From Candidatus Nanohaloarchaea archaeon (GTDB taxonomy: Archaea; Nanohalarchaeota; Nanosalinia; Nanosalinales; Nanosalinaceae): 64,000 nucleotides of DNA. Location: positions 640,001 through 704,000 of the forward strand of contig CP046106.1 in NCBI GenBank assembly GCA_013343275.1, written 5' to 3'. Positions 30,696 through 53,454 of this stretch are shown here, in pieces (within the stretch, counting starts at the first letter, position 1; each line of letters opens with the position of its first letter). The notes beneath the pieces are model-generated. The model was not told the DNA's origin, searched no databases, and saw only the letters and a list, made by a program, of their open reading frames with translations. A program made the translations under genes and the position numbers.

Positions 30696-30806
30696 ATGAA
30701 AGGTGGACGTCCCTCTGAAAATCGGAGATTTTCTGGAGTCAAAGGAAATCTGCGATTTCCAGACTTTTCTCACCGGACACATTTTGCAACCAACCAGGCT
30801 CGATGA
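30696..30806 (+). promoter_or_regulatory. Putative leader peptide of serS (MKGGRPSENRRFSGVKGNLRFPDFSHRTHFATNQAR)
   Basis: ATG..TGA in frame; TTTTTAAC about 27 nt upstream; homologous to the tyrS leader. Confidence 0.6.
30710..30763 (+). repeat. Double-hairpin GAA...TTC element, copy A
   Basis: GAAAATC-gga-GATTTTC and GGAAATC-tgc-GATTTCC; 54-nt in-frame insertion relative to the tyrS leader. Confidence 0.7.
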
Positions 30807-30863
30807 GAGCCAGTTAGATCTAAAACCTATTCTAGATAAAAATTTCTACGTAAGTGGTTACGT

Positions 30864-32126
30864 ATGATTGCTATAGAAGTCTTCCGCGATAATCCTGAGG
30901 AGATTAAAGACGCACAGAGACGTAGAGGAAAAGACCCTGAGAAAGTAGATAAAGTAGTTGAACTCGACAGAGAATGGAGAGAGAAACTGCAGGAGCTTGA
31001 ATCTCTTCAGCAGGAGAGAAACGAAGTAGGGGATAAGATCGCGGAGCTTAAACAGGAAGGAGAAGATGCCTCCGATAAAATTGAACGCATGCAGGAAGTA
31101 AAACAGAGAATCAGCGAGCTGGAGGACGAAGTCGACGATCTGAAAGAGGAACGTGACGAAGTCCGCTACCAGGTAGGCAACCTGCTAGCCGACGATGTTC
31201 CTGAAGGAGAGGGAGAGGAAGACAACCCAGAACTCCGGACATGGGAGCCGGAGGAAGGGATGAAAGAGGACTCAAAACTTGCTGCAGACTTCCTTGAAGA
31301 AAACGATCTTCTGTCAGCGGAGAAGGCCACAGAGGTAGGAGGAGAACGCGCATACTACCTATCACCGGAATTGCTACAGCTGAGCCAGGCCCTGATCAAC
31401 TTCTCGATCGACTTCCTGAAAGAGAAAGACTTTGGAGTCTATCAGGTGCCGTACATGCTGGAGGAGAAGTCGATCTCTGCAGCTGTAGATCTGGAAACAT
31501 TCGAAGACCAGCTCTACCAGGTAAACGAAAACGACAGATACCTGATAGGTACCGCAGAACATGCACTGGCCGCGAAATATCAGGGGGAAGTAATAGAACA
31601 AGACCTACCACTCAAACTTGGAGGATACTCCACAAACTTCCGGAGAGAGGCCGGTAAACACGGTAAACAGACCAGAGGTCTCTGGAGAGTCCACCAGTTC
31701 GAGAAAGTAGAGCAGTTCGCATTCTGCAAACCAGAAAACCACCTGGATATACTCCAGGAGACTCTTGGCAATGCAGAGGAGATCATGCAGGAGCTAGGTC
31801 TTCCATACCGAGTAGTCGATATCTGCGACGGCGACATCTCGAACAAGACCTTCAAGCAGTACGATATCGAGGTATGGAGGCCTCCTCTCGGAGAGTACGG
31901 AGAAGTTGGTAGCTACGGGTCATGTACCGATTACCAGGCCCGCGAGTTCGATACCAGATACCGTGAGCAAGGCGACAGAAAAGTTCCTTACACAGTCTAT
32001 GCGACCGGTCTCGTACCTCAGAGGATCATCACGGCAATTATTGAGAACAATATGACTGAGAAAGGAGTGAAGATTCCAGAGGCATTACAGGATTACATGG
32101 GTGGGAAAGAGTACCTGGAAGTTTAG
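30864..32126 (+). CDS. serS: Serine--tRNA ligase
   Basis: N-terminal coiled coil, GTAE, FRREAG, RVHQFEKVEQF, TDYQAR. Confidence 0.97.
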   Translation: MIAIEVFRDNPEEIKDAQRRRGKDPEKVDKVVELDREWREKLQELESLQQERNEVGDKIAELKQEGEDASDKIERMQEVKQRISELEDEVDDLKEERDEVRYQVGNLLADDVPEGEGEEDNPELRTWEPEEGMKEDSKLAADFLEENDLLSAEKATEVGGERAYYLSPELLQLSQALINFSIDFLKEKDFGVYQVPYMLEEKSISAAVDLETFEDQLYQVNENDRYLIGTAEHALAAKYQGEVIEQDLPLKLGGYSTNFRREAGKHGKQTRGLWRVHQFEKVEQFAFCKPENHLDILQETLGNAEEIMQELGLPYRVVDICDGDISNKTFKQYDIEVWRPPLGEYGEVGSYGSCTDYQAREFDTRYREQGDRKVPYTVYATGLVPQRIITAIIENNMTEKGVKIPEALQDYMGGKEYLEV

Positions 32127-32184
32127 ATAGAAGATCAGGAGAATAGAGGAGGAGTAAAAATATTCCTCTCTTATTCCCTTTCTT

Positions 32185-32703
32185 TTACTGGAGGCCTGCG
32201 TCGTAGTTGCTTCCGAATGCGCGGTCGCCTTCGCTGGATGAATGGCCTACGATCTCTTTGCTTTCTTCATCATTGAAGAGTCCCGAGAAAGCATTCATGG
32301 CTTCTTCGCTTTCAAAACCTGTGGCCCATCTATCGTATTCCGGGCCTTCTGTGTGAGGTTCTTTATCTTCAGGTCTCTGACCATTTTGATCGTAGTGCGA
32401 AGGATTGTTGCCCGGCCTGTCCATTGTTACTCCTGCGACTCTTTCAAATTCTACAACCCTTGGATCTTTATCCAGATCAACTGGCGAGGAAATTTCGGAT
32501 TCTTCGGAGCCGTAGAGCACATCTCTAAGCTCTTCAGGTTCAACTCCGACATCTTCAGCAGCTTCTTCTACTGAGTCGTATCTTTCTTCCCCTATATAGA
32601 CTGCTGGTTCGTCTTCTGGAATATCAATATCGTCAGGACTCTCAAATCTGTCTTGCCAGAATTCTTCGTTTGTCTTGGCGTACTCAGGTTTTCTATCTAC
32701 CAT
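32185..32703 (-). CDS. Acidic hypothetical protein with NUMOD1-like HTH
   Basis: YDSVEEAAEDVGVEPEELRDVL; GGAGG Shine-Dalgarno upstream. Confidence 0.65.
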   Translation of the reverse strand: MVDRKPEYAKTNEEFWQDRFESPDDIDIPEDEPAVYIGEERYDSVEEAAEDVGVEPEELRDVLYGSEESEISSPVDLDKDPRVVEFERVAGVTMDRPGNNPSHYDQNGQRPEDKEPHTEGPEYDRWATGFESEEAMNAFSGLFNDEESKEIVGHSSSEGDRAFGSNYDAGLQ

Positions 32704-32777
32704 CAGTACCGGCCTCCTGTTTTTTCTACTGATTTTAAATGGTTGAATACCATAGAGTTGTGTTGTAGTTGTTTCAT
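32703..32777 (-). CDS. Putative 24-aa small ORF (MKQLQHNSMVFNHLKSVEKTGGRY)
   Basis: AAGGTGA Shine-Dalgarno upstream; TGATG overlap with next gene. Confidence 0.45.
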   Translation of the reverse strand: MKQLQHNSMVFNHLKSVEKTGGRY

Positions 32778-32868
32778 GTGTATTGTCACCTTTTAGAATT
32801 TTTACAGCAGTAGAACTAGCAGCAGTAGAGCCACAAGTTCCACAGAAGCTTTGGAGTTAGAGAAAAAG

Positions 32869-32934
32869 CTATCGTAGCAGAACGCATCCACCCTTAGGCA
32901 CAAAACAACCACCTGAAGTCGTGTCTGCGTTCAT
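32869..32934 (-). CDS. Putative leaderless 21-aa ORF (MNADTTSGGCFVPKGGCVLLR)
   Basis: TTTTATAAG box about 25 nt upstream of ATG. Confidence 0.4.
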   Translation of the reverse strand: MNADTTSGGCFVPKGGCVLLR

Positions 32935-33035
32935 AGGACTACTTTGAAGGATAGTTCTTATAAAACCTCTGTTCTCGCCTACAACCTAAACAAAGTGAAT
33001 GCGGAGCAACAAATAGGTTTTAAGGTGAAGACACT

Positions 33036-33245
33036 ATGAGCGTTATGGAAGCTCTTTCCGAGCTACTGGAAAGTGTAGTGGCCTATGTAGTAATGATTCT
33101 GCTGGGAGTAGTATCCTTCTTTGTAACCGTATTCATAGTGAAGTACGGAGCAGATCTGGCAGGTTACGCACCGAGCGGAGACTTCGCAGTCCTTTCAGCA
33201 GCACTGCTGGTAGCAGCATCTATGCTGTCGGGTTCAATGAGGTAG
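33036..33245 (+). CDS. Small membrane protein
   Basis: Two TM helices; AAGGTGA upstream. Confidence 0.75.
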   Translation: MSVMEALSELLESVVAYVVMILLGVVSFFVTVFIVKYGADLAGYAPSGDFAVLSAALLVAASMLSGSMR

Positions 33246-33327
33246 TAAAATTCCGCAGTAAAAACTTCCTTTTCCAATTTTTTCTTCCTTTCAAACAAAC
33301 CCTTTCTTCTTTTAAGCTTCTCAGTTC

Positions 33328-35397
33328 ATGGATAAATCAATGGCAACGACAGTAATGATTGGTGAGAAACCCAAGGTAGCAAGCCGTATAGCCCAGGCAC
33401 TGGGAGATTATTCCATAAAAGAGAACCGTGGAGTGAAGAACTACGTAATCGACAAAGGGGGGAACGACAGAATAATTATTGCACCAGCAGTAGGCCATAT
33501 CTTCAATCTCGAACAGATCAGCGAAGGATGGGACTACCCTGTATTCGACGTTGAATGGGTTCCAACTTTTGAAACCGATGATTCTGCTGACTACATGAAA
33601 AAATACTACAACAATCTACGAGACCAGATCGAAAAGGCCGACGAATACATCAACGCATGCGACTTTGACCTTGAAGGATCCGTCATCGGAGCCAACGTTA
33701 TCAAACAGATCGCTGACGCGCCCGAAGAAAGAATCAAGAGGATGAAGTTCTCAACACTGACTCCAAGCGATCTGCAGGAGGCCTACGACAACCTGGAGGA
33801 CTACGACAGAGGAATGACCGAGGCTGGATTTACAAGACACTATCTGGATTTCTACTATGGTGTAAATGTTTCGAGAGCACTGATGCAGGCTGTCAGAGAG
33901 AACGATCGGTACAAGACCTTGTCCACCGGACGAGTGCAGGGCCCGGCATTAAAGGTTCTTGCGGACAGAGAGCGCGAGATCATGGAGTTCGAACCGGATC
34001 CTTACTGGGAGATCTACCTGATCCACGAAGAGTTCGAGGCCCAGTGGGAGGACGACGAAGACCGTATCTGGAACGAAGACGTAGCTGAAGGGGTATTCAA
34101 CAGAGTCAAGGATGCGAAAAAGACTCACGTCTCCAACATCAAAATCAATAACTACAAGCACAACCCGCCAATCCCTTTCAACCTGACAGGCCTTCAGAAA
34201 GAGGCCTCTTCGCAGTTCAACATCAACCCTAAACAGACTCAGGCTATTGCACAGACACTTTACGAGAACGGCCTGATCAGTTATCCTCGTACCGAGTCAC
34301 AGAAGCTGCCGCCGAAGATCGGGTACAAAAATATACTTAACAAGCTGAAGAAGCAGGACAAGCTGGAAGAACCTGCCAAGAAGGTTCTGGACAAGGATGA
34401 CGATGATCTGTACACCCGGCAGGGTAAGAAAGAGGACGATGCGCACCCTGCAATCTATCCTACAGGCGAGCATCCTTCAGGCCTTTCGAAGAGAGAAGGC
34501 CAAGTCTATGACTTGATTGCGAAGCGTTTCTTCGCGGTCTTCGGTGAGGCCGCTCAGAGACAGTCGCTGACTCTAACCCTTGATGTCGAAGGCCACGAGT
34601 TCAAGGCGAAGTCGAAGGTCACCAAGGAACGTAACTGGTTCGATCTCTACGATCCATATGTTAATGTGGAGGAGGCAGAGCTTCCAGGCCTTGAAGAAGG
34701 AGAGGTTCTTGACATCGAGGATTTCAGACTGGATGAGAAAGAGACTCAGCCACCTAGAAGGTACTCTCAGTCAGGTATTGTCTCCGAGCTGGAGAAGAAA
34801 AATCTGGGTACAAAGGCCACAAGAGCTCAGGTAGTTGATCGACTTTACAACAGGAACTACATTGAGGAAGATCCTATCGAGGTATCTGATCTAGGGCTGA
34901 CCATCGTCAAGACTCTGGAGGAGTACTCTCCAAGCCTCCTAAGCGAAGAATTAACCCGTGAGTTCGAGGAGAACATGCAGGCTATCAGAAACGAGGAAGA
35001 TTCCCGAGAGGAAGTTCTTTCGAAGGCCCGCGAGGAGTTGAAGGAGACTCTTGAGAACTTCAAGGAGAACGAGGCCAAGATTGGTGCACAGCTCGTAGAT
35101 ACCATCGATTCCGAGAGGAAGAGAAGGAGAACTCTAGGGCCGTGTGAGAAATGTGAGGAAGAAGGCCGTGAAGACGGGAAGCTGAGGATTATCAAGTCTA
35201 ACGGCAGCAAGTTTGTAGGCTGCTCCAACTATCCGGACTGTGAGAACACTTATCCTCTTCCGAACAACGGGAAGATTTCCAGTCTTGATAAAGAATGTGA
35301 GACATGTGGTAAGCCTATGATCGATGTGCAGAGGAAGAAGGGCCGTGACTACCAGATGTGTATCGACCCTGACTGCGCTAGTAAAGATGACTGGTAG
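33328..35397 (+). CDS. topA: Type IA DNA topoisomerase
   Basis: GEKP, CDFDLEG, GRVQ, ISYPRT catalytic Tyr, C-terminal zinc ribbons; start may be 33340. Confidence 0.96.
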   Translation: MDKSMATTVMIGEKPKVASRIAQALGDYSIKENRGVKNYVIDKGGNDRIIIAPAVGHIFNLEQISEGWDYPVFDVEWVPTFETDDSADYMKKYYNNLRDQIEKADEYINACDFDLEGSVIGANVIKQIADAPEERIKRMKFSTLTPSDLQEAYDNLEDYDRGMTEAGFTRHYLDFYYGVNVSRALMQAVRENDRYKTLSTGRVQGPALKVLADREREIMEFEPDPYWEIYLIHEEFEAQWEDDEDRIWNEDVAEGVFNRVKDAKKTHVSNIKINNYKHNPPIPFNLTGLQKEASSQFNINPKQTQAIAQTLYENGLISYPRTESQKLPPKIGYKNILNKLKKQDKLEEPAKKVLDKDDDDLYTRQGKKEDDAHPAIYPTGEHPSGLSKREGQVYDLIAKRFFAVFGEAAQRQSLTLTLDVEGHEFKAKSKVTKERNWFDLYDPYVNVEEAELPGLEEGEVLDIEDFRLDEKETQPPRRYSQSGIVSELEKKNLGTKATRAQVVDRLYNRNYIEEDPIEVSDLGLTIVKTLEEYSPSLLSEELTREFEENMQAIRNEEDSREEVLSKAREELKETLENFKENEAKIGAQLVDTIDSERKRRRTLGPCEKCEEEGREDGKLRIIKSNGSKFVGCSNYPDCENTYPLPNNGKISSLDKECETCGKPMIDVQRKKGRDYQMCIDPDCASKDDW

Positions 35398-35398
35398 A

Positions 35399-35677
35399 TT
35401 ACTTGTCCATCATCGTTCTCTCTGCATCAACAGCAGTGTCGATCAGAAGACGGCCTAGCTGGCGTCCTCGCTCCCTTGGTAAATCTCTTTTCTCGAAGAG
35501 ATCGCCGAACTGCTGCATAACCTGTTCCTCTCTGTCCTCATCTTTGACGTTCATATCGTTCTCTTCCTTGTACTCAACTACTTTGACGACCTCTTCCATC
35601 CTGTCGGCAACCTTATCAGCAATTTCTCTATTGATTTCATCGATATTCTGTCTCGCGTCTTCAAGCAGATCGGTCAT
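35399..35677 (-). CDS. Chorismate mutase (AroQ type)
   Basis: LEDARQNIDEIN...R......V..YK.......D.DRE. Confidence 0.85.
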   Translation of the reverse strand: MTDLLEDARQNIDEINREIADKVADRMEEVVKVVEYKEENDMNVKDEDREEQVMQQFGDLFEKRDLPRERGRQLGRLLIDTAVDAERTMMDK

Positions 35678-35687
35678 ACCTTACACC

Positions 35688-35708
35688 TTGAAACTCTCTG
35701 AACTTCAA
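35688..35708 (-). repeat. Single GAA...TTC hairpin, possible copy E, within a 14-aa bridging ORF (35674-35718)
   Basis: TTGAAGTTC-aga-GAGTTTCAA followed by AAGGTG. Confidence 0.45.
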
Positions 35709-35719
35709 ATTTACGCATC

Positions 35720-36574
35720 CTACCGGACCTCATCAGACAGGAACTCGATAACCAGATCAGTCCTGTTCTGAGCACCCTCCAGATCAAACTCGTCGCCAAG
35801 CTCATCGAACTTCTCTGCAAAGGCCTCCTCATCACCAACAATCTCTCTGATATCCTCCGCAGAATCAATGAATCGTTCACGAACGTCCTCGTTCTCCGGG
35901 TTCTCGGCCTGAATACTGCCGTACAGACCTGGCTTCTGGTTCAGCATCCTCGCAGTCAGATCGGTAATCAGCTGATAGACCGGAGAGGAGAACTCCTCCA
36001 TGTCGTCGCCGGAAAGCTCCGACTTCCTGATAACATCGGCAACAACCAGCTCAGAGAAATGCATCAATCCCTGAACCAAGCTCATGGCCTTATCATGAAC
36101 CTCTGGCTCAGTGAAGTGGAGATCAGCGCCGTGCTCCTCCCAGAACTCCTCCATCTCAGACCACTTCTTCCCTCTCTCAGGACACATAACAACTTTCTGG
36201 CCTTTAACCGAGTTGCTCGGAGCATACATCGGATGCATACCAAGAACCTCATCCGAATACTCCCTCATGGCCTCCGTCGGCATCTGCTTCACACTGGTAA
36301 TATCACATAAAAGCGCATCATCGGGGACATGAGGCCCTACCTCATGTATAACTTCTTCCGTAACTGCGATCGGAACTGCGATAATAACTACATCAGCATC
36401 TTCAACTATTTCGGTGCTCGGGCCGTAGCTCCAGCCTCTTTCCTCTGCAACTTCTTGTGCATCCTCTACAGTCTTGCCGGAGATGAAGATCTCGTTTTTC
36501 TCATCCATTCTTTCTCCCAGATGCCGGCCGAACTGTCCTGTACCTCCAACAATCGCGATCTTTCTATCAATCAC
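35720..36574 (-). CDS. tyrA: Prephenate dehydrogenase
   Basis: GGTGQFG, DITSVK, HPMY.P, HDKAMSLVQGL.H. Confidence 0.92.
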   Translation of the reverse strand: MIDRKIAIVGGTGQFGRHLGERMDEKNEIFISGKTVEDAQEVAEERGWSYGPSTEIVEDADVVIIAVPIAVTEEVIHEVGPHVPDDALLCDITSVKQMPTEAMREYSDEVLGMHPMYAPSNSVKGQKVVMCPERGKKWSEMEEFWEEHGADLHFTEPEVHDKAMSLVQGLMHFSELVVADVIRKSELSGDDMEEFSSPVYQLITDLTARMLNQKPGLYGSIQAENPENEDVRERFIDSAEDIREIVGDEEAFAEKFDELGDEFDLEGAQNRTDLVIEFLSDEVR

Positions 36575-36627
36575 TCGAAATCGCCTCGATTTCTGTGTGA
36601 CCAGAAAATATCAGATTTTCGGATCAC
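36571..36627 (-). repeat. Double-hairpin GAA...TTC element, copy B
   Basis: GAAAAT-ctgat-ATTTTC and GAAATCG-agg-CGATTTC; 13-nt direct repeat ATCACTCGAAATC spaced 53 nt. Confidence 0.7.
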
Positions 36628-37730
36628 TCGAAATCACCTCTTTCTTCAAGCCTGTCAAAGGCCTTGTCGATTTCCTCTATCGTAGTTGAGCCGAAACAGA
36701 TTCTGACGTTTTGATCGCTGTCAGGCCCCATCGGCTCGCCGGGCACCATTGCAACTCCTTGTTCAATCATCTCCATGCAGAAATCCCAGGAATCCTCTCC
36801 GACCTCAGGGAATGCATAGATTGCTCCCTCTGGTGCGACAAAGTCCCATCCAAGATCATTCATCCGTTCTACAAGAAGATCTCTGCGGCCCTCATAGGCC
36901 TCTCTCATCTCCTCTACATGAGAATCATTTTGGAGAGCTTCTATCGCCGCATACTGTGAAATTCTTGGAGGGCATGCAGTAGAGGCTCGAGAGACTTTTG
37001 CGTATTCTTCGATATTTTCCGGATCATCGACCAGCCAGCCAACTCTCCAGCCGGTCATCGCATGATTTTTCGAGGCCGAACCGATTATCGCCGCGTTCTC
37101 CGCGTAAGCTGCAGGTGAGAAATGTTCACGGCCGTAAGTCAGTCTATGGTATACCTCATCGGAAACCAGAAAAGTATCATTTTCTTCAGCTACCTCCGCA
37201 ATTTTGCGGGCCTGATCCTCGTTAAGAACGTATCCAGTAGGATTTCCAGGCGTGTTAACGATCACAAGGTCGGCCTCTGCAATTTCCTCTCTGGCTTCTT
37301 CTCTAAGTTCTCTGTCGTCGTTCCAGTACTGTACCTGGCTCCATTCATTTTCCGAGACCTCGGAGATCATCTTGTAAGGTCCCCAGCATGGATCATTGAA
37401 AACTGCTTTATCCTCAGCACCAAGTCGGGCCGCCATTATCGCGTAGAGAGCACCCATACCACCGGTAGTAACCATTACCTCTTCACCGGAGACATTAAGC
37501 CCTTTCTTGCCCGATTCTTCCTCTGCAACAGCTTCTCTAAGCTCTTCGAGGCCCAGCATCGGAGAGTATCCCTGTTTCTCTTCCAGGCCTTCTCTAGCTG
37601 CTTCTTTAACATGTTCTGGCGTGTCGAATGATGGCTGGCCTATGTCGAACCTGACGATGTCGTCCTGTTTTGCTGCTTTTTCCGAAATTTTTCTTATTGA
37701 AAGATTGATGTTCTGTATTCGTTCTCGCAT
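36624..37730 (-). CDS. Class I/II PLP aminotransferase (aspartate/aromatic)
   Basis: IGQPSF, PGNPTG, DEVY, SASKNHAMTGWRVG. Confidence 0.93.
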   Translation of the reverse strand: MRERIQNINLSIRKISEKAAKQDDIVRFDIGQPSFDTPEHVKEAAREGLEEKQGYSPMLGLEELREAVAEEESGKKGLNVSGEEVMVTTGGMGALYAIMAARLGAEDKAVFNDPCWGPYKMISEVSENEWSQVQYWNDDRELREEAREEIAEADLVIVNTPGNPTGYVLNEDQARKIAEVAEENDTFLVSDEVYHRLTYGREHFSPAAYAENAAIIGSASKNHAMTGWRVGWLVDDPENIEEYAKVSRASTACPPRISQYAAIEALQNDSHVEEMREAYEGRRDLLVERMNDLGWDFVAPEGAIYAFPEVGEDSWDFCMEMIEQGVAMVPGEPMGPDSDQNVRICFGSTTIEEIDKAFDRLEERGDFE

Positions 37731-37738
37731 TTTTTGAT

Positions 37739-38518
37739 CTACTCCGGCATCTCCGCCGAACTGTAACTTCCAAGATTTTGGACCTCTCCGTAGGTTTCAA
37801 GGCACTTTAAGGCCTTTTGCAGCCGGCCATTCGCTGTCTCGGCCTCAACATAGAAGAAGTACTCTCCAAGTTTTTCCTTCGTAGGCCGTGACTGTATGTG
37901 GCTCAGGTTAATCTCGTGGCCAGAAAAACACGACAGCATCGAGTGAAGCAGGCCCGGCCTGTCCTCTCCAGGTTTCAGTATCAGCGAAGTTTTCTCCTCG
38001 GCCTCTGGCTCTCCGTTAAGCACAAGGAATCTGGTGACATTCACATCCCTGTCCTGTACGGATTTCCTCAAAATGTTTTTTCCGTTCAGCTCTGCTGCGA
38101 TCTCCGAGGCCAGTGCTGCCTCGCCACTTCCAAGATTTTCAACTGCGTCGGCCGTCGAATTGGCCTCTTCTGTTTCCCATCCATACTCGTTAATTATTTC
38201 TTTGCACTGTGCAAGGGCCTGTGGGTGAGATTTCACTTTCTCAATATCTGAAATATCTTTTTCGTCGGAGATCAGTGCGTGTTGAATTCCTAGAATTACT
38301 TCGCCAGTGATTTTTTCGTCGCGTTCTTCCAGGAGATCGATGGTATCTGTTACCCCTCCGCCCAGCGAGTTCTCGATTGGTACAAATTTTTTCTCGGCTT
38401 CTGATTCGAAAACCTCTCTTATAGTTGAGCAGAACTGTGTTTCAAGGTTGTCAAAGTATTTTTCAGCTGCTTGATGTGTGTAAGTTCCGGAAGGGCCTAG
38501 AAGTGCGACCTTCACCAT
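37739..38518 (-). CDS. pheA: Prephenate dehydratase
   Basis: LGPSGTYT, PIENS, SHPQALAQC, NVTRF, ACT domain IQSRP. Confidence 0.95.
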   Translation of the reverse strand: MVKVALLGPSGTYTHQAAEKYFDNLETQFCSTIREVFESEAEKKFVPIENSLGGGVTDTIDLLEERDEKITGEVILGIQHALISDEKDISDIEKVKSHPQALAQCKEIINEYGWETEEANSTADAVENLGSGEAALASEIAAELNGKNILRKSVQDRDVNVTRFLVLNGEPEAEEKTSLILKPGEDRPGLLHSMLSCFSGHEINLSHIQSRPTKEKLGEYFFYVEAETANGRLQKALKCLETYGEVQNLGSYSSAEMPE

Positions 38519-45675: not shown

Positions 45676-46446
45676 ATGGAAGACAAAAACAAGGAAGAAT
45701 CCACTAAAGAACATTTCAGAGAGGGTAAGAAACATCTGGAGAAGGGAACTCAGAAGGTAATGCAGGCCGGAATAGAGAAAGGGCGGGAGCAGACCAAGAA
45801 ACTTGACTATTACCGGCAGAACAGATCTGAGTTTATTGAAAACGTATCTCGGAGAATGGGCAACCCGAAAAAGCCGGCGGTATCCGGCCTTATCGTGGTT
45901 CTTCCCGTAGCAGTCGTTCTTCTTTTGGTCAACTGGCTTTTCAACAAGATCGGCCAGATTCCCGGCAACCAGTACTTCAATATCTCGAATATCTACTACC
46001 TCAATCAGACCTTCAAGCTGGCTATACTGCTGACTGTTGCAGCAGTTGTAGTAACCGGTGTAGGACGCCTAGTAAGGACGGAAAGAGGTTTTCAACTTGA
46101 GAAAATTCTAGACGAAATGTTCGACATGATACCTTTCATAGGCAGCGTATACAACATGACAAAAGTCACAACAGAGACTGTGATGGGCGGCGCCGAAGAC
46201 TTCTCAAGGCCTGTCAAAGTAGAGCACAGCGGATTCCGTCTGACAGGATTCAAAACCGGCAACCAGACCAAAGATGGTCGCGAAATAGTATTCATGCCTA
46301 CCGCGCCAAACATAACTTCAGGCCTTGTACTTGAGCTAGACGAAGAAAAAATAGAGGACGCCGATGAAACAGCCGAAGAGGCCTTAACAAGAATTCTATC
46401 AGCAGGTTTTGGAGAAGGAGGAAACTCCAGCTCGGAGGAGGAATAG
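45676..46446 (+). CDS. DUF502-like membrane protein
   Basis: IPFIGSVY, FMPTAPNITSG. Confidence 0.85.
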   Translation: MEDKNKEESTKEHFREGKKHLEKGTQKVMQAGIEKGREQTKKLDYYRQNRSEFIENVSRRMGNPKKPAVSGLIVVLPVAVVLLLVNWLFNKIGQIPGNQYFNISNIYYLNQTFKLAILLTVAAVVVTGVGRLVRTERGFQLEKILDEMFDMIPFIGSVYNMTKVTTETVMGGAEDFSRPVKVEHSGFRLTGFKTGNQTKDGREIVFMPTAPNITSGLVLELDEEKIEDADETAEEALTRILSAGFGEGGNSSSEEE

Positions 46447-46561
46447 AAAACAGAATTAAACAAGTTAAAGCCTTTAAACACAGAAAGAGTAATTTAAATT
46501 GCCTCAGCTTAACGATTGTTAATAGACCAGTTTAAAACCTTCAGCAAGTTATTGAAGAAAC

Positions 46562-47401
46562 ATGAGAAAATACCTTGCACTGCTACTTGCCTTAACCCTG
46601 ACAACAGGAATAGCCTCAGCGCAACCCAGCGACACTGGAGCCGCACAGAGCAATATTTCTGCAGGCCTTACCCCTGCCAGTCCTCTCTACGGCATTGAGA
46701 TGTTTGCTGAGAACCTGGAGGTCAAGCTAGCAGGCCTGATAGGCGGCAGTGATATGAAGGCAAAAGCCATGGCAAACAATGCCGAGGAAAGGCTTGCTGA
46801 AGCTCAAGAGCTTATTGAGAAAAACAGAAGTAGTAAAGCTACACAGCTGATAGAGAGGTACTCACACACAATCAATGAATCAATTGAAATAGCTAGCAGA
46901 GGGCAAAATGAAGGACTTAAGCAGAGGATAAACAACATTTCCAGCAGAAACGTAGAGATGCTGAAGAAGGTTAAAGAGAAAGTACCTGCCCAGGCACAGG
47001 ATGCGATCCAGAAGGCTATAGAGCAATCTGAAGAACGGGCAAAAGCTGCAAGAAACCGGACAGGTAAACCTGAAGGAATAACCGGCAGAAATAGCTCAGT
47101 TCAGCCCCCTGAAGCGCCAGGCGAAGGCAAAGCTCCTAAAGTAAGTAGAAAAACTAAAAACCGATCCATAGATGAAATCCTGGGCGGAGAGAGCACCAGC
47201 AACAAATCCAGAAAACCCCCTCAGCCATCAGCTAATGAAAGCTCCGTAGATAAAATCGTGCCTAACCAGAATAGCAGCACCTCCGAACGCTCGAACACTA
47301 CCAGAGAAAATGCTGGCGACACCTCGCCAACAGAGAGCCTGAAAAATAATACGGAGCTCAACAAATCATCAGATACTAATTCTCTGAATGAGTTGAAGTA
47401 A
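46562..47401 (+). CDS. Secreted DUF5667-like helical protein
   Basis: Signal peptide, GLTPASPLYG, AEERLAEA, KVPAQAQ. Confidence 0.75.
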   Translation: MRKYLALLLALTLTTGIASAQPSDTGAAQSNISAGLTPASPLYGIEMFAENLEVKLAGLIGGSDMKAKAMANNAEERLAEAQELIEKNRSSKATQLIERYSHTINESIEIASRGQNEGLKQRINNISSRNVEMLKKVKEKVPAQAQDAIQKAIEQSEERAKAARNRTGKPEGITGRNSSVQPPEAPGEGKAPKVSRKTKNRSIDEILGGESTSNKSRKPPQPSANESSVDKIVPNQNSSTSERSNTTRENAGDTSPTESLKNNTELNKSSDTNSLNELK

Positions 47402-47403
47402 TT

Positions 47404-47790
47404 ATGGCCGTTCCATTCCCTGAAGCAGAGCTGGAAATACTAATATACATGCTTCTCGGAGCCTTTATCGCACTTACATTTGCCTCAGGCCTATACATCT
47501 GGAAACTGAGACAAGTCTTGGTCTCAGCCCAGGGAGATTCCTCTGAAGAAGAGGAAGATCTCCGTATCGATAATATAGGCCTCTCGCGCAGAGCTGAAGA
47601 AGTTCTTGACATGGTGATGGATGACCCAACCCTTCAGAGCGATCTCCCTGACGAAGTCGATGTCTCGAAGGCCACGATAAGTAATGCAGTATCTGAACTT
47701 TTCGAGAGAGATCTTGTTATCAAGAAGAAAAAGGCCAATACCTACCTGATTGAACCTAATTTTGAGGAGATCAGGAAACAGCAGCGTTAA
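47404..47790 (+). CDS. Membrane-anchored HTH transcriptional regulator
   Basis: N-terminal TM; QSDL...DVSKATISNAVSEL..RDLV.K. Confidence 0.85.
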   Translation: MAVPFPEAELEILIYMLLGAFIALTFASGLYIWKLRQVLVSAQGDSSEEEEDLRIDNIGLSRRAEEVLDMVMDDPTLQSDLPDEVDVSKATISNAVSELFERDLVIKKKKANTYLIEPNFEEIRKQQR

Positions 47791-47854
47791 ACAATACTGA
47801 ACAGGTTTTCTCAATCATTAAACGGATTTAAACGGTTGCTGAACGGGTTTAAAC
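47788..47854 (+). promoter_or_regulatory. Phased T(A/G)AAC repeat array, putative operator
   Basis: Copies at 47788, 47798, 47819, 47829, 47840, 47850. Confidence 0.6.
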
Positions 47855-47914
47855 CGCTGTTTCTGGATACGCCATTTAAGGGTGGACCGAGTATGTCAGC
47901 TTGGTGAAAACAGA

Positions 47915-48769
47915 ATGAATTACTCAAACAAGTTTACCGCGCTCTTCCTGATCGCAGGAATGGCGCTCGGATTTGCTGCACCAGCAGCAGCACAGCCTTC
48001 ACAGGCCCAGTCCAGTTCAAATGTAGAAACAGATGCGCAAGCATCTGCACAGATAGGTATTACGCAGGCTATTTCCAACCTGCGAGACCAGGTCCAGGAA
48101 CTCACACAGCAGATAAATCAGCTGCAGCAGAGAGTTAATACCCTGGAAGCAAAAGTTAATGCTTCCGCAGAAGCTGCCGGACAGACAACAGCAACCGGCG
48201 AAGTAAACGCCAACGGCCATAGAGGTCCTCCAGAGCACGCACAGAACAACCAGAAAGACAACCTCGGAGCAAAGGTTTCAGCCGAGGCCCGTGCAGGAGA
48301 CCAGGCAGGAATCTTCGCAGCCATCAGCTCGTTCCTCTCAGACAGAGGCAACGATCAGGCTGCAGAATCTGTAGGAAACAACTCCTCAGATGACAGCAAA
48401 CAGCAGGAGGAAACAGAATCGACATCAGAGATTGAAGTCAATGTATCCGGAGAGATCGAAGCCGGAAACAACGTAACTGTAAAAGCAATGCAGGAAGGAG
48501 AGGCCGTAGCTAACGCAACAGTCAAAGTTAACGGCGAAGTAGCTGGCCAGACCAACGCAGATGGAGAAATCGTTGTAACAGTCCCAGAGGCCGACGAATT
48601 CGAAGTTGAAGTTGAGTCAGGCGACAGCGAAGGAGATTTTACATCAGAAATTACCGCGAGCGCTGAAGCAGGCGCAGAGACTGAAACAGAAACCAGCACT
48701 TCAGGAGGAAGTGCAGAGGCTTCAGCAGATGCAGAGATCTCAGGCGAAACCACCGTAGGCCTTAACTAA
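47915..48769 (+). CDS. Secreted acidic protein with coiled coil and Ig/carboxypeptidase-regulatory-like domain
   Basis: Signal peptide, heptad stretch, VANATVKVNG...GQTNADG; GGTGA before ATG 47915. Confidence 0.8.
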   Translation: MNYSNKFTALFLIAGMALGFAAPAAAQPSQAQSSSNVETDAQASAQIGITQAISNLRDQVQELTQQINQLQQRVNTLEAKVNASAEAAGQTTATGEVNANGHRGPPEHAQNNQKDNLGAKVSAEARAGDQAGIFAAISSFLSDRGNDQAAESVGNNSSDDSKQQEETESTSEIEVNVSGEIEAGNNVTVKAMQEGEAVANATVKVNGEVAGQTNADGEIVVTVPEADEFEVEVESGDSEGDFTSEITASAEAGAETETETSTSGGSAEASADAEISGETTVGLN

Positions 48770-48846
48770 GGCCTCTTTCTTCCTTTAATTCTCTTTTTTC
48801 CAGCTTTCTACCAAAGAAGATTTAGGCTTTAACCACGAAATATAGA

Positions 48847-49152
48847 ATGATGGAAGAAGAAAACCTGGAAGAAGAGATAAACGAGTTCTTCAACGAAAAC
48901 AATGATGGCCGTTACAGAGCCAGCGTAGATGTAGATTACAGTCAGCCGGAGGCTAGAATATATGTGGCCTTCGAAGATGGCTCCGAAAAACCAGGTATTG
49001 GCTCGTTTGTTGACGAAATCTTTGAAGATCTTGGTATCTCCAACCCAAGAATGGAGGCTGACTGGCATCCTGAAGAGAACAGATACGACATTACTCTGAA
49101 AGAAGATGTCGACGGACCTCTACAGAGCCAGACTCCGAAAACTTCAGTCTAA
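48847..49152 (+). CDS. Hypothetical acidic protein
   Basis: 101-aa ORF filling the gap. Confidence 0.65.
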   Translation: MMEEENLEEEINEFFNENNDGRYRASVDVDYSQPEARIYVAFEDGSEKPGIGSFVDEIFEDLGISNPRMEADWHPEENRYDITLKEDVDGPLQSQTPKTSV

Positions 49153-49155
49153 AGT

Positions 49156-51198
49156 TTATTCTTCCAGTTCTAGCTCTATATCAGAGACGAAGGCCTCATC
49201 TTTCTTCAGGATCAAAGGGTTGACATCTATCTCGGAGATTTCCTCATGGTTTAATGCCAGTTCTCCCAGTCTGATAATCGCGTCTTTCACGGGCTCCATT
49301 GAGTGATCTTCTCCACGAACCCCTTTGAACAGGTCGCTGCTCTGAAGCTCCTCTATCATCTGTTCGGCTTCTTCCTCGCTAATAGGTGCGATTCCGAACG
49401 AGATATCATGCAGGGCCTCGATGTAGATGCCTCCGAGGCCTACGAGAATCATCGGGCCGAACTGTGGATCTCTCTTCATTCCCAGAGCAACTTCGAGACC
49501 GTTCAGTTCCTCCTGTATGACTATTCCATTGATCGGTACCTCTCCGTTCTTCGCGTGGTGAACGTTTTCAATTATTTCTCTAAAGCTTTCCTGAACATCT
49601 TCCCTGTTCTCAACACCGGTTTTAACACCGCCCACATCGGTCTTATGCGATATTTCCGGCGAATCAATCTTCATAACCAGAGGGTAGCCGATACTGGAGG
49701 CTGCATCCTCCGCATTGCCAGGGGCGCTCTCGACCTCGGTAAGAGGAAGATCAAAACCGTAGGCCTCAAATAGTTGATGGCCTTCCTCATAGCCAGAATA
49801 ATCCTGAAGAGCATTCTCCGCCTTCGTCCTGTCAAAGTCTATATCCTGATATGTTCTGTCGGTTTCAAGGAATTCACGGTAGCTATGCATTGATTTCAGA
49901 GTCTTTATCGCATCTACAGGATCCTCGAACTCAGGAATCCTGTTATCTTCCAGTATCTCCTTGCCTGAAGCAACATCTTCCTCTCCCATGAAAGAGGCAA
50001 AAACCGGTTTCTCCGAATTCTGATCTGCCTCAACTATCGCTTTCGCGGTTTTATCGATCTCTGTATTGGCCTGCGGCGTCAGTAACACTACAACAGCATC
50101 AACATTCCTGTCATCAAGCACCGAATCAAGAGCCTGTCTGTACCTGTGGTGGCCTGCGTCGCCTATAACATCAAGCGGGTTGTGAAGAGTTGATTCATCC
50201 GGCATTACCTCCTCAAGCCCGGCCTTTGTTTCCTCAGAAAACTCCGCAAGCTCCATCCCTCTCTGAGATATCTCATCAGTGGTAATAACTCCAGGCCCTC
50301 CTGCATTAGTAACTATTGCAATTCTCTTGCCTTCAGGAGGTTTCTGGTAGGAGAAAGCGCGGCCGAAATCCAGCAGTTCTCTGTTGGACTCGGCCTCTAT
50401 AATACCTGCCTTTCGGAAGGCTGCCTGATAGGCCTGATAGCTGCCAGCAATACTTCCAGTATGTGACGATGCTGCAGATCCTCCTTTATCTGTACGACCG
50501 GATTTAATCATTACAATCGGTTTCTCACGGGAAGTCTTCTCCGCCTCATTCATGAACTCGCGGCCGTTATCAATCCCCTCGGTATAGGCGATAATTGATT
50601 CAGTATCGTCTTCGCGCCATTTCTTCAGAAGATCAACCTCGTTAAGCTGAGCCTTGTTACCTAGAGACACGAAGTGGCGGAAACCGATATGCTCCGCCTT
50701 CGAGTAATCCAGTATCGCCGTGCAGAAAGCTCCGGACTGGCTCATGAAGGATATATCTCCTTCCTCCGGCATTTTGGATGCAAAGGACGCATTCATCGAG
50801 TTCTCGGTATTGATAAGGCCGAGGACGTTAGGCCCCAGGAGCGCGATATCGTTCTCATTCGCAATATCCAGAACTTCCTGCTCCCTCTGCTCATTGCCTG
50901 TCTCAGAGAATCCTGCGGACACAATAATCGCGGCCTCTACTCCTTTGCTCGCGGCATCCTGCATAACATCAGCAACAATTTTTGAAGGAACCGCTATAAC
51001 TGCAAGATCTGTTCCTTCCGGTATCTCATCGAAGGCCTTTTTTCCTTCCACTTTGTCAGCTTTAGGGTTGACAGGATAGATCTCTCCCTCAAATCCATGA
51101 GCCAGGTTGTCGAAGATTTCATGGCCTGTCTTGCCTTCATGGCGTGAAGCCCCTACTACAGCAATATCTTCTGGTTTGAAGAGTTTATCGAGTTTCAT
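49156..51198 (-). CDS. acd: Acetate--CoA ligase (ADP-forming), fused alpha/beta
   Basis: Start MKLDKLFKP; GPN..G, SQSGA, SHTGS, TNAGG, HKTDVGGV. Confidence 0.94.
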   Translation of the reverse strand: MKLDKLFKPEDIAVVGASRHEGKTGHEIFDNLAHGFEGEIYPVNPKADKVEGKKAFDEIPEGTDLAVIAVPSKIVADVMQDAASKGVEAAIIVSAGFSETGNEQREQEVLDIANENDIALLGPNVLGLINTENSMNASFASKMPEEGDISFMSQSGAFCTAILDYSKAEHIGFRHFVSLGNKAQLNEVDLLKKWREDDTESIIAYTEGIDNGREFMNEAEKTSREKPIVMIKSGRTDKGGSAASSHTGSIAGSYQAYQAAFRKAGIIEAESNRELLDFGRAFSYQKPPEGKRIAIVTNAGGPGVITTDEISQRGMELAEFSEETKAGLEEVMPDESTLHNPLDVIGDAGHHRYRQALDSVLDDRNVDAVVVLLTPQANTEIDKTAKAIVEADQNSEKPVFASFMGEEDVASGKEILEDNRIPEFEDPVDAIKTLKSMHSYREFLETDRTYQDIDFDRTKAENALQDYSGYEEGHQLFEAYGFDLPLTEVESAPGNAEDAASSIGYPLVMKIDSPEISHKTDVGGVKTGVENREDVQESFREIIENVHHAKNGEVPINGIVIQEELNGLEVALGMKRDPQFGPMILVGLGGIYIEALHDISFGIAPISEEEAEQMIEELQSSDLFKGVRGEDHSMEPVKDAIIRLGELALNHEEISEIDVNPLILKKDEAFVSDIELELEE

Positions 51199-51295
51199 GT
51201 TTTTGAATGGTCTAAGCTCGTTATTTAGGTTGTTGAATTCACCGAGAGGTCGCAAACGATTTTTTATATACAGCCGGAGGCCTGTTTCAATCATA

Positions 51296-52351
51296 ATGCG
51301 GGAAGAAGTATATTCTGGTTCTGTTGAGCGTATTGAAGTAATGGGGACTGAAGACGAAGAGGACTTCCCCTGGATCGAAGAAGATGAGTACAGAGAGCTC
51401 TACAGAAAAATGATGATTGCAAGAAAATTTGATGAAAAGGCCTTCTCACTGCAGAGAAGAGGCGAAATATCCACTTACGCGCCGCATAAAGGACAGGAGG
51501 CCGCTCAGATCGGAGCAGTTTTTGCACTGGACGAGGATGACTGGATTGTGCCTTCTTTCCGCGAATCAGCGGCATTCATACAGAGAGGCGCACCTCTAGA
51601 CAAGATCTTTCAGAGATGGATGGGCGATGCCAACGGCCAGAAAGATCTCTCCGAACTGAATACATTACCTGTAGCAATTCCTGTAGGAACGCAGAATCTG
51701 CATACCGCGGGCCTTGGGATGGCTATGGAGAAGAAAGGAGACGAAAACGCAGTACTTGGGTTCACAGGCGATGGATCGACTTCTGAAGGAGATTTCCACG
51801 AGGCCCTGAATTTTTCAGGAGTCTTCAGCGGCCACTCAGTATTCTTCGTACAGAACAACCAGTACGCGATCTCTATGCCCAGGGAGAAGCAGACCAGGTC
51901 CGAGACGATCGCACAGAAAGCTATCGCATACGGGATCGACGGCATACAGGTCGATGGCAACGATCTGCTGGCTGTGATCAAGGCGGTAGAAGAAGCGCTG
52001 GAAAAGGCCCGTAAAGGAGAGCCAGTCCTCGTAGAGGCCATAACTTACAGGCTGGAGGATCACACTACTTCCGACGATTCGACACGTTACAGAGATGAGG
52101 AGGAAGTAGAAGAATGGAAGGAGAAAGACCCCTTAAAACGCTTCAGAGAATACCTGAAAGAACACGATATCTGGGACGACGAAATGGAAAGCTTCGAGGA
52201 AGAGGCCGAGGAAAAAGTAGATAAAGCTGCCCAGAAGGCGATAGAAGCAGACGACCCAAGCTTCGACGAACTGTTCGACTATGTATACGAGGAGATGCCC
52301 GAGCTGTTACAGGAGGAAAAAGAACAGCTCAGAGAAGAGGTGAAGGAATGA
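51296..52351 (+). CDS. pdhA: Pyruvate dehydrogenase E1 alpha
   Basis: GQEA, GDGSTSEG...NNQYAIS, YR..HTTSDD. Confidence 0.93.
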   Translation: MREEVYSGSVERIEVMGTEDEEDFPWIEEDEYRELYRKMMIARKFDEKAFSLQRRGEISTYAPHKGQEAAQIGAVFALDEDDWIVPSFRESAAFIQRGAPLDKIFQRWMGDANGQKDLSELNTLPVAIPVGTQNLHTAGLGMAMEKKGDENAVLGFTGDGSTSEGDFHEALNFSGVFSGHSVFFVQNNQYAISMPREKQTRSETIAQKAIAYGIDGIQVDGNDLLAVIKAVEEALEKARKGEPVLVEAITYRLEDHTTSDDSTRYRDEEEVEEWKEKDPLKRFREYLKEHDIWDDEMESFEEEAEEKVDKAAQKAIEADDPSFDELFDYVYEEMPELLQEEKEQLREEVKE

Positions 52352-52401
52352 TGAAGATCGCAGATCTTCGCAGAGACGAAAACAGAGGTGTTTTCGAATA
52401 A
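52348..52401 (+). repeat. Double-hairpin GAA...TTC element, copy C
   Basis: GAAGATC-gca-GATCTTC and CGAAAAC-agaggt-GTTTTCG. Confidence 0.7.
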
Positions 52402-53369
52402 TGGGAGAAAAAATGAATATTGTTGAGGCCGTTAATCAGGCGCTTCACGACGAAATGGACGAAGATGAAAATGTAATTGCATACGGAGAGGATGTAGGAG
52501 AGGACGGTGGAGTTTTCCGTGCGACCGAAGGCCTCCAGGACGAGTTCGGAGAGGATCGCTGTTTTTCGAGTCCTCTGGCCGAGTCAGGGATTGCCGGAAC
52601 TGCTATCGGGATGAGCCTGTACGGTTTCCGGCCGGTAGTTGAGATGCAGTTCTCCGGGTTCTCGTACCTGGCGTTCTACCAGATCAAAGAACACGCATCC
52701 AGGATGAGAATCAGATCCCGTGGCGACTACAACGTGCCGCTTACAGTTCGTGCACCGTACGGAGGAGGAATTTCAGCACTGGAACACCACCAGGAATCGC
52801 CAGAGACGTTCTTCGCCCATTCACAGGGCCTGCATGTTGTAATCCCAAGTACACCGCAGGACACCTACTCTCTGCTCCGTAAATCAATTCAGATGGATGA
52901 CCCTGTAGTCTTCCTTGAACCGAAGAAAATCTACAGAGCCTTCAAAGAGGAAGTCGATACAGAGAAAGAAGTAGATCTAGAACAAGCCCGTATAGTACAG
53001 GAAGGAGAGGACGTAACCCTGATTGCATGGGGCGCAATGGTTCCTGTAGCAGAGGACGCAGCCGAAGAGATCGATGCCGATGTCGAGATAATCGATCCCC
53101 GCACAATTTACCCCGCGGACTTCGATACGATATACGAATCAGTGGAGAAAACCGGGCGCGCAATGGTACTACACGAGGCCCCAAAGAGTGTCGGTTTTGG
53201 AGCAGAGATCGCTACACGCATACAGGAAAACGAAATCTTGAAGATGGAGGCTCCTGTAGAAAGAGTTACAGCACCAGATACTCCTTACCCACTTTACACT
53301 CTTGAAGACTTCTACATGCCGAACAAGGAAAGAGCTGTGAAAGGCCTTGAGAGAGTACTCAACTTCTAG
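52401..53369 (+). CDS. pdhB: Pyruvate dehydrogenase E1 beta
   Basis: GEDVG..GGVF, PLAESG, EHHQES, FLEPK. Confidence 0.94.
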   Translation: MGEKMNIVEAVNQALHDEMDEDENVIAYGEDVGEDGGVFRATEGLQDEFGEDRCFSSPLAESGIAGTAIGMSLYGFRPVVEMQFSGFSYLAFYQIKEHASRMRIRSRGDYNVPLTVRAPYGGGISALEHHQESPETFFAHSQGLHVVIPSTPQDTYSLLRKSIQMDDPVVFLEPKKIYRAFKEEVDTEKEVDLEQARIVQEGEDVTLIAWGAMVPVAEDAAEEIDADVEIIDPRTIYPADFDTIYESVEKTGRAMVLHEAPKSVGFGAEIATRIQENEILKMEAPVERVTAPDTPYPLYTLEDFYMPNKERAVKGLERVLNF

Positions 53370-53397
53370 GTGATTAAAAATGAAAAATAAAATCAAG

Positions 53398-53454
53398 AAT
53401 CGAAAGCCGGTTTATCCGGCTTCACATGATCGAACTCTGTAGGTGAGTTCGATT
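53398..53454 (+). repeat. Double-hairpin GAA...TTC element, copy D
   Basis: AAGCCGG-tttat-CCGGCTT and ATCGAACTC-tgtaggt-GAGTTCGAT; ends AATCGAA and TTCGATT are inverted. Confidence 0.62.

Follow-up and report, generated by a model that had tools for sequence, protein, structure and literature searches.

In a window of 64,000 nt from the genome of a nanohaloarchaeon (Candidatus Nanohaloarchaea archaeon, assembly GCA_013343275.1, contig CP046106.1) we analyzed a family of short double hairpins; the window, i.e. this whole stretch, comprises bases 640,001-704,000 of a genome that consists of one contig of 915,886 bp and has 47% G+C. The element consists of two adjacent hairpins of ~17-20 nt with the feet GAAA...TTTC and amounts to a net insert of ~54 nt. 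Surviving copies in the Nanohaloarchaeota are found almost only at start codons inside operons and in sense orientation, where a mini open reading frame (mini-ORF) runs through both hairpins and the Shine-Dalgarno (SD) sequence of the next gene lies in hairpin 2. This anatomy had been missed by the original prediction, which was made from the letters of the window alone and proposed a tiny non-autonomous mobile element or a recognition structure. We now consider it likely that we are dealing with a small non-autonomous mobile element of operon start codons, a relay cassette that resembles a MITE (miniature inverted-repeat transposable element) and works like the MIRUs (mycobacterial interspersed repetitive units). 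As for the host, the E1-beta subunit of pyruvate dehydrogenase (PDH) encoded in the window has its nearest named relatives in Nanohaloarchaea (78-88% identity).

All four sites for which double hairpins had been predicted do contain them, and a fifth, proposed as a half copy at 35688-35708, lies within a short ORF of the same kind. The positions in the window are:

30717..30760, given on the plus strand, orientation ambiguous: copy A, a double hairpin in the spacer of 202 nt that separates an Ogt-like gene from serS, off the start codon
36572..36627, minus strand: copy B, an 18-codon relay mini-ORF VIRKSDIFWSHRNRGDFE between the genes of an aminotransferase and of prephenate dehydrogenase
52348..52403, plus strand: copy C, a 17-codon relay mini-ORF MMKIADLRRDENRGVFE between the genes of PDH E1-alpha and E1-beta
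53380..53453, plus strand: copy D, a 20-codon mini-ORF MKNKIKNRKPVYPASHDRTL between the genes of E1-beta and E2, representing a divergent second subfamily
35674..35718, minus strand: possible decayed copy, a 14-codon mini-ORF MRKFEVQRVSRCKV between the prephenate dehydrogenase gene and a 92-aa ORF

Copies were scored with a covariance model built in two rounds, R1 from 3 copies and R2 from 11; RNAalifold on a plain MAFFT alignment recovered hairpin 1 only, because hairpin 2 was out of register, and re-alignment to the three-sequence model R1 was used instead. Flanking genes were named by Pfam. In copy C (R2 E=7e-12) the mini-ORF begins with an ATG that runs into the E1-alpha stop (ATGA) and ends with a TAA that runs into the E1-beta ATG (TAATG); the hairpins are GAAGATC-gca-GATCTTC at 52353-52369 and GAAAACA-gagg-TGTTTTC at 52378-52395, the latter holding GAGGTG. 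Copy B (R2 E=3.3e-4; hairpin 1 at 36604-36620 and hairpin 2 at 36577-36593 in plus-strand positions) starts with a GTG overlapping the aminotransferase stop and ends with a TGA overlapping the GTG start of prephenate dehydrogenase. The 13-nt direct repeat predicted at its ends is perfect (ATCACTCGAAATC at 36570-36582 and 36623-36635). Copy D has a GC-rich hairpin 1, AAGCCGG-tttat-CCGGCTT (53404-53422), and a hairpin 2 of ATCGAACTC-tgtaggt-GAGTTCGAT (53429-53453), in whose loop both the mini-ORF stop TAG (53440-53442) and the E2 start GTG (53443) fall; it is absent from the R2 match list even at E<=10. Copy A, with GAAAATC-gga-GATTTTC at 30717-30733 and GGAAATC-tgc-GATTTCC at 30744-30760, is matched by R2 on both strands (E 0.002 and 0.007). 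Compared with 200 shuffles each, the folding z-scores are -3.56 for copy A, -1.27 for B, -2.92 for C and -2.81 for D. The half copy alone is not significant (folding z -0.27 and -0.15; R2 E=4.8). As it lies inside a 14-codon relay mini-ORF with one hairpin, which contains G-U pairs and is followed by AAGGTG and an ATGA overlap, the stretch 35674-35718 looks like a decayed copy, its membership resting on architecture and on the likeness of its peptide to the class II copies described below.

In the general plan of a copy, an SD-like GGTG at the 3' end of the upstream gene precedes a start codon, in many cases one that shares bases with the upstream stop (ATGA). Next come hairpin 1 (GAAAATC-nnn-GATTTTC), some 10 nt of linker and hairpin 2; the stem of the latter is variable, with GAGGTG or AGGTG in its loop and 3' arm. 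At the 3' end, the mini-ORF stop overlaps or abuts the next start (TAATG, ATGA, GTGA or TGA-ATG). The mini-ORF itself comprises 15-21 codons, its start overlapping or abutting the upstream stop, and from this start up to and including the downstream start codon there are 53-62 nt in the 14 core copies. Comparison with sequences lacking the element places the insert between two start codons, so that the old SD and the first ATG now open the mini-ORF. GAGGTG is a true SD, since the 16S rRNA of this genome has the 3' end GGATCACCTCC with the anti-SD present; an SD-like tetramer is found within the last 30 nt in 57 of 64 matches. The SD of the downstream gene lies inside a stem-loop within the mini-ORF, which is predicted to be translated, as would be expected of a coupling hairpin that sequesters the SD. 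Ribosomes leaving the upstream gene would translate the mini-ORF, melt hairpin 2 and pass to the downstream gene, and judging from the sequence the gene behind the insert is probably still translated. The following copy departs from this plan:

Genome 26722-26776, minus strand: copy after the RNA polymerase A'' gene (L085/L103) with a 26-codon ORF not ending on a start codon; the gene of a NusA-like KH protein starts 88 nt on

Pairing and ORF statistics were obtained for 59 distinct copies, taken from the genome of the window and from those of relatives, in an alignment fitted to model R2. An ORF runs across both hairpins in 57 of them, and 48 show the coupled architecture, with typical offsets of -1, +2 and +3, compared to 19.5 +/- 3.2 after shuffling of the interior (max 28 in 200) and 14/59 when the element is reverse-complemented in place. 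Frames that are open in nearly all copies, with a proper start and SD, and the recurring motifs KI(A/E)DF and ENQRFSG would also suit conserved micropeptide genes (MKIADFR...GVFE) whose peptide is the functional product. The mini-ORFs are, however, of two classes, which differ in the frame in which hairpin 1 is read, giving MKIADFR... or M.ENQRFSG..., so that one and the same hairpin encodes unrelated peptides; therefore it is the palindrome that is conserved, not the peptide, and conservation tracks the palindrome rather than the codons. As some copies moreover lack an ORF or lie beside tRNA genes, and presence is polymorphic in close relatives, we regard functional micropeptides as highly improbable.

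The number of copies in the genome is far above that of shuffled sequence; a match between the two would have refuted the original prediction. R2 gives 18 matches at E<=0.01 at 16 loci, with E-values down to 1e-12, while a strict scan finds 13 double hairpins genome-wide and nhmmer ~15 strong copies. The exact hairpin 1 motif, GAAAATC-N3-5-GATTTTC, occurs 13 times in the genome and not once in any of 5 first-order Markov genomes. Hairpin seeds of six bp are overall not in excess (1784 vs 1691-1872 in 3 shuffles); seeds opening with GAA are (92 vs 55-65 in shuffles). The ordinary number of hairpins overall, together with the noise of a purely structural criterion (113/1071 stops vs 32/558 interior controls, too noisy for a census), is the only thing that speaks for chance clustering of AT-rich GAA...TTC palindromes. 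This explanation is refuted by the exact motif, by the R2 E-values and by at least 116 exact double patterns in a wider search (see below) where ~0.02 are expected, and we attach practically no weight to it. A loose scan for relay mini-ORFs was likewise mostly noise (59 sites, 33 of them without any hairpin).

13 of the 16 R2 loci are junctions between genes on the same strand, as listed here with further genes flanking copies:

Ribosomal protein junctions with copies: L23/L2, L22/S3, L14/L24, L5/S14, S5/L30, S12/S7 and L44e/S27e
Other same-strand R2 junctions: Rpb7/Spt4, Spt4/S24e, Rrp4/Rrp41, E1-alpha/E1-beta, ferredoxin/FAD oxidoreductase and aminotransferase/prephenate dehydrogenase
Further genes flanking copies (Pfam): PDH E1-beta/E2, topoisomerase VI B/A and subunits of the A-ATPase

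In the ribosomal clusters of relatives, 20 of 23 matches are co-oriented with the genes. R2 matches are found in 27/41 genomes among relatives at E<=0.01 and in 45/70 genomes across the phylum at E<=0.001; by family (again E<=0.001), these are 38/49 in the family of the window's own genome, 5/8 and 1/10 in two others and 0/1 in each of two more. Four genomes of the family, three of them 96-99% complete, have no R2 match; at the other extreme are genomes with 15-28 matches.

Comparison of orthologous junctions reveals filled and empty sites, which supports the predicted mobility: empty orthologous sites were found for all four window copies and for many ribosomal junctions. From 20 relatives we took the L3-SecY cluster and scored 305 junctions between ribosomal protein genes; the L23/L2 junction of genome G024 (L170), where the 106-nt gap reads as a run of N, was left out of the scoring. 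Gap lengths are bimodal, with 254 junctions of <=20 nt and 33 of 40-150 nt. With a genome of the same genus (L2 94% identical) the window's host shares only the copy at L22/S3, whereas L23/L2, L14/L24, L5/S14 and S5/L30 are empty there. S5/L30 is filled here only (0/12 other genomes), and this copy was therefore gained on this lineage. In other genera different junctions are occupied, and there again genomes of one genus are not alike. The L23/L2 copy of this genome is nearly identical to that in a genome from another genus. [quoted passage not shown] Tandem copies also occur, two at L14/L24 in G024 and about two at S19/L22 in G008.

The same pattern is observed for the copies in the window. 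The site of copy B is exactly 54 nt shorter, and thus empty, in two same-genus genomes and one other (G001, G002, G021). At the E1-alpha/E1-beta junction of copy C, 3 of 8 related loci are filled, 1 has a mini-ORF with one hairpin and 4 are empty (plain TAATG-type). At the E1-beta/E2 junction of copy D, L002 and L003 carry an insert, and L001, L004, L006 and L007 are empty (L005 and L008 are not comparable). Copy A is present in the same-genus genome G002 and is an exact 54-nt difference from the empty site of same-genus G001. It had been described as an in-frame insertion relative to the tyrS leader; the gene is in fact serS, and in a narrow sense the frame claim stands, as copy A, when compared with a same-genus genome, adds exactly 18 codons and preserves the frame of a short ORF that lies upstream of serS. 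This short ORF (MKGGRFSHRTHIATNQA in a relative) and its surroundings (window 30696-30806) are well conserved in three same-genus genomes and may represent a leader peptide, a small RNA or a promoter region. G001, which lacks copy A, has another double hairpin at a different place in the same spacer. In a same-genus genome (L307), ~560 nt extra lie between ogt and the serS leader region, and the spacer has its own double hairpin of ~60 nt, at a site that in the window is empty.

The flanks show possible traces of an insertion event. The 8-mers abutting the hairpin feet have a best identity of 5.10, compared to 4.65 +/- 0.11 when cross-paired (max 4.98 in 500), and a match at 7 or more of the 8 positions is seen in 10 of 58 copies (3.4 +/- 1.6 expected). 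This similarity, albeit weak, looks like a decaying target-site duplication.

The strong pairing of the stems has to be considered in this context, as it could reflect either selection on an RNA or the spread of a DNA palindrome. The predicted covariation of the inner pairs was found: 98.5% of the stem cells are paired, 12 of 14 pairs are changed on both sides (69 cells), this is reached by 0/500 shuffles, and slid controls collapse. Such data are compatible with a host-selected cis-regulatory RNA, i.e. a vertically inherited translational operator in which hairpin 2 hides the SD, or to which a common RNA-binding protein binds and co-regulates the operons of ribosome, RNA polymerase, exosome, ATPase and PDH. 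The SD inside hairpin 2 in 57/64 matches and the position of copies between genes for subunits of the same complex fit this explanation, as does the L22/S3 insertion, which is filled in 9/20 relatives scored and whose hairpin 2 stems are different but paired. Coupling by RNA unfolding is, in addition, established in bacteria and phages according to a review (PMC12548453). However, genomes of one genus differ at 4 of 5 ribosomal junctions, S5/L30 is filled in a single genome, and four family genomes are without a match. Copies are also found in untranslated places such as the ogt-serS spacer (copy A), the region after ftsZ and the neighbourhood of tRNA genes, and even inside a haloarchaeal TnpB gene. 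Furthermore, the old L22/S3 copy of several relatives retains the mini-ORF with its overlaps but has decayed hairpins, no Rfam family matches, and G-U pairs are not enriched: the stem cells comprise 806 Watson-Crick, 5 G-U, 3 A-C and 9 other combinations. Taken together, we judge a host-selected regulatory RNA distinctly unlikely.

In our view it is rather for its spread that the element needs the hairpins, and through the open frame and the SD that an insertion survives, because G-U pairs are not favoured, old copies decay and copies occur in untranslated places. The hairpins would serve as a DNA-level recognition feature for the mobilising enzyme rather than as an RNA structure kept for the host. 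Insertion would be nearly harmless in tightly coupled operons and would persist there, while insertions elsewhere would be purged. The predicted maintenance of structure under sequence drift accordingly stands as far as pairing is concerned, without necessarily implying selection on RNA structure, given the G-U counts and the decay of old copies. Differing but paired hairpin 2 stems are compatible with some selection for SD sequestration, so that both forces may act.

A number of observations weigh against the mobile element as we propose it. The pair counts come from alignments selected by and fitted to the model, which favours perfect stems. Orthologous L22/S3 copies that differ in the hairpin 2 stem yet stay paired, as well as the compensatory pair by which copy A differs from its same-genus orthologue (GAAAGTC/GACTTTC in hairpin 1 of G002), fit selection for structure too. 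In most copies the direct repeat at the flanks is weak; copy A shows none when compared with its empty site, and the length of the repeat varies: 13-18 nt rather than 8 in copy B and 10 nt in the copy beside tRNA-Gly. Precise loss, or transfer of alleles by homologous recombination, could explain part of the presence/absence pattern. As no mobilising enzyme was found, transposition is deduced from presence and absence only. The original prediction had seen none in the window, and the search of the whole genome for six transposase families extends this result. The Y1 transposase (PF01797) is missing from this genome, although control genomes gave matches, and from 24/24 searched family genomes; DDE_Tnp_1, rve, DDE_3 and IS1595 (PF01609, PF00665, PF13358, PF12762) gave no match in this genome, and TnpB (PF07282) two sub-threshold matches only. 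DDE_Tnp_1 is above the cut-off in only 3 of 24 genomes, and no element adjoins the few transposase genes that relatives have.

One relative, G039, which belongs to another family of the order, is the only genome of 40 relatives with Y1 transposases (two) and also has an IS1595-type transposase (L174, L175, L305); its single R2 match does not adjoin the transposase genes.

Hairpins of this type also occur outside coupled junctions. Arrays of 3-4 hairpins follow ftsZ and the NFACT gene and precede or follow tRNA genes, for example:

Genome 434615-434720 (L094/L108): four GAA...TTC hairpins in a row directly after the ftsZ stop, without relay ORF
Genome 542336-542469 (L149:1437-1570): tRNA-Gly gene, then a two-hairpin element, a 10-nt direct repeat of the tRNA 3' end GGACGCCGCA and further hairpins

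Genes of tRNA-Pro and tRNA-Arg are likewise flanked by hairpin arrays (L152, L150). From such arrays, from the runs of four T on both strands (TTTTC closes each arm) and from the intergenic pairs in other archaea one might conclude that the hairpins punctuate transcripts, as weak bidirectional archaeal terminators, RNA-processing sites or stability hairpins, comparable to repetitive extragenic palindromic (REP) and enterobacterial repetitive intergenic consensus (ERIC) sequences in bacteria. Most copies, however, are situated inside conserved operons of ribosomal proteins, where termination would do harm, and neither termination nor processing needs a maintained frame with stop/start overlaps. 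We therefore deem transcript punctuation improbable.

Beyond the phylum, the exact two-hairpin pattern (26 fixed bases) was found in at least 116 stretches of 596 Gb, nearly all of them archaeal, with a chance expectation of ~0.02 matches by our own arithmetic assuming uniform base composition; a viral collection gave 0 matches. Among 80 matches listed are 19 from Nanohaloarchaea, 20 from Woesearchaeota, 15 from metagenome-assembled genomes (MAGs) labelled Methanosarcinales, 10 from Halobacteria, 3 from Nanoarchaeota, 2 from Methanobacterium, 7 from other archaea (one Asbonarchaeaceae) and 4 from bacterial MAG contigs. MAGs labelled Woesearchaeota and Methanosarcinales contain identical or near-identical elements with the same flanks (L181, L199, L212, L227, L253); this could be due to mis-binning or recent transfer, and MAG labels may be unreliable. 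Outside the Nanohaloarchaea the pairs are intergenic or part of hairpin arrays, with arrays of 3-4 hairpins in Woesearchaeota contigs (L218, L220).

The Halobacteria are a special case, as they contain one copy per genome, located in the middle of the TnpB gene of an IS200/IS605 element, where it forms an in-frame insert of 18 codons (54 nt), SRKIEDFPEVENTSRFRN. The insert is flanked by GGATTCAC/GAATTCAC, and homologues that are 92-96% identical lack it. In Haloferax prahovense and Haloarcula pellucida the TnpB genes with the insert adjoin a Y1 TnpA gene. The inserts are:

L292:3019-3070, minus strand: AT-rich insert in TnpB, Haloferax prahovense contig_51 (R2 E ~1e-5 to 1e-6 for this and the following copy)
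L293:2956-3007, minus strand: AT-rich insert in TnpB, Haloarcula pellucida sequence06
L293:2747-2796, minus strand: second in-frame 54-nt double hairpin of the same TnpB gene, GC-richer, GAGAGAC-gaa-GTCTCTC ... GGAAGAC-gaa-GTCTTCC

The GC-richer pair is also an 18-residue insert in P0001 and P0005. One may propose that the hairpin pair is the recognition module of a transposition system widespread in Archaea, neither Y1 HUH nor one of the tested DDE types, which would act in trans on genomes that do not encode it. Such a system might be supplied by a virus, a plasmid or even the haloarchaeal host cell, since an AT-rich copy matching the nanohaloarchaeal model sits in a GC-rich haloarchaeal TnpB gene. 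In DPANN archaea the element would then have become a true translational relay, in which hairpin 2 allows the downstream gene to be translated strictly when the upstream one is. We hold this proposal for possible though rather unlikely.

If the relay cassette is what we propose, it suggests how a selfish insert can live in the most conserved coupled operons (those of ribosome, RNA polymerase, exosome and ATPase) of a genome of <1 Mb without breaking them, and points, with the same hairpin pair in several archaeal phyla and with no known mobiliser, to an undescribed mobility mechanism. It would explain most of the odd junction gaps of 45-60 nt in these genomes and warn annotators about the mini-ORFs, while filled and empty sites may serve as strain-level markers for nanohaloarchaea. 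It also calls for caution in general: compensatory changes in a repeated hairpin alone do not prove a functional RNA.

Several known systems are comparable. With MITEs and with Correia, ERIC, BOX and RUP elements the double hairpins have in common that they are small, AT-rich, multi-copy, present or absent in close relatives and without coding capacity for a transposase, with termini resembling inverted repeats (GAAAAYC...GRTTTTC) and, in a subset, short flank repeats. They are, however, much smaller (~46 nt plus the flanking repeat), specialised in start codons and equipped with an outward-facing ribosome-binding site. A partner insertion sequence with the same termini was not found in this genome among PF01609, PF00665, PF13358 and PF12762, and the transposase loci of relatives are without the element. 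REP/REPIN sequences with their REP-associated tyrosine transposases (RAYTs) and palindrome-associated transposable elements (PATEs) are likewise short, dispersed, non-autonomous palindromic hairpins, often paired and with compensatory stem variation. Here, by contrast, the hairpins are in tandem and not inverted doublets, and the start-codon sites are read through by an ORF; the comparison with the HUH/Y1 system of REP and RAYT made in the original prediction is not borne out, as Y1 is absent from this genome and all searched family genomes. There is also evidence for short direct repeats in the flanks, which IS200/IS605-type insertion is not known to make. An IS200/IS605-derived PATE was rejected: TnpA was not found in this genome or in the searched family genomes, the flank 8-mers are more alike than the controls, and the only link is the copy in mid-TnpB, which is not at the end of the insertion sequence.

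A CRISPR array was rejected too, there being at most four hairpins in a row with differing stems and linkers of ~10 nt, as were C/D-box small RNAs, bulge-helix-bulge introns and integron attC sites, since inspection by eye for the usual motifs revealed neither C/D boxes nor 3-nt bulges in the folds. Rfam 15 gave 0 matches at the gathering score over the whole window, copy C included. The non-coding RNAs of a cultivated nanohaloarchaeon are 115-322 nt long and unrelated, the sequences of Table S3 in the accessible part of that report being without the motif (PMC10266531). In the literature searched we came across no description of such elements for Nanohaloarchaeota, and a MITE review lists no DPANN elements in the sections available (PMC10969869). 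In that review, Rickettsia palindromic elements (RPEs) figure as mobile palindromic repeats which translated sequence can accommodate because the frame stays open (PMC10969869). The same behaviour is seen in copy A (54 nt) and in the insert of 54 nt, or 18 codons, in the haloarchaeal TnpB gene; RPEs, on the other hand, are ~150 bp long, bacterial and mostly in frame within genes, whereas here a separate mini-cistron with stop/start overlaps prevails. In coupling hairpins that occlude the ribosome-binding site, and in bicistronic-design cassettes, the downstream SD likewise lies in structured RNA that would be melted by ribosomes, and coupling by this RNA-unfolding model is established for bacteria and phages (PMC12548453). 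Those are single evolved or engineered sites, whereas here a cassette is found at dozens of junctions and varies between strains.

The closest counterpart is of another kind than REP or RPE. Because copies lie at start codons, with a mini-ORF coupled to both neighbours and the SD of the next gene in hairpin 2, MIRUs compare better. They were reportedly described by Supply et al. in 1997 and are not known to show marked dyad symmetry. The differences are that the present element is archaeal and not actinobacterial, that it consists of two perfect hairpins with their own SD in hairpin 2, and that it is also found away from operons and, in frame, within a gene; the likeness is one of function, homology not being expected across domains. 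According to a 2025 review, MIRUs are mobile elements whose insertions fall on start codons and whose internal ORF is coupled to the gene with a spacing of -4 (PMC12548453). Like MIRUs, the double hairpins are short, dispersed operon repeats at start codons, oriented with the genes and occasionally in tandem; they are multi-copy between co-oriented operon genes, their internal ORF overlaps or abuts both neighbours, and their insertion at the start codon is polymorphic in close relatives. The element is therefore likely to be a natural archaeal counterpart of the mycobacterial MIRUs and of engineered bicistronic cassettes.

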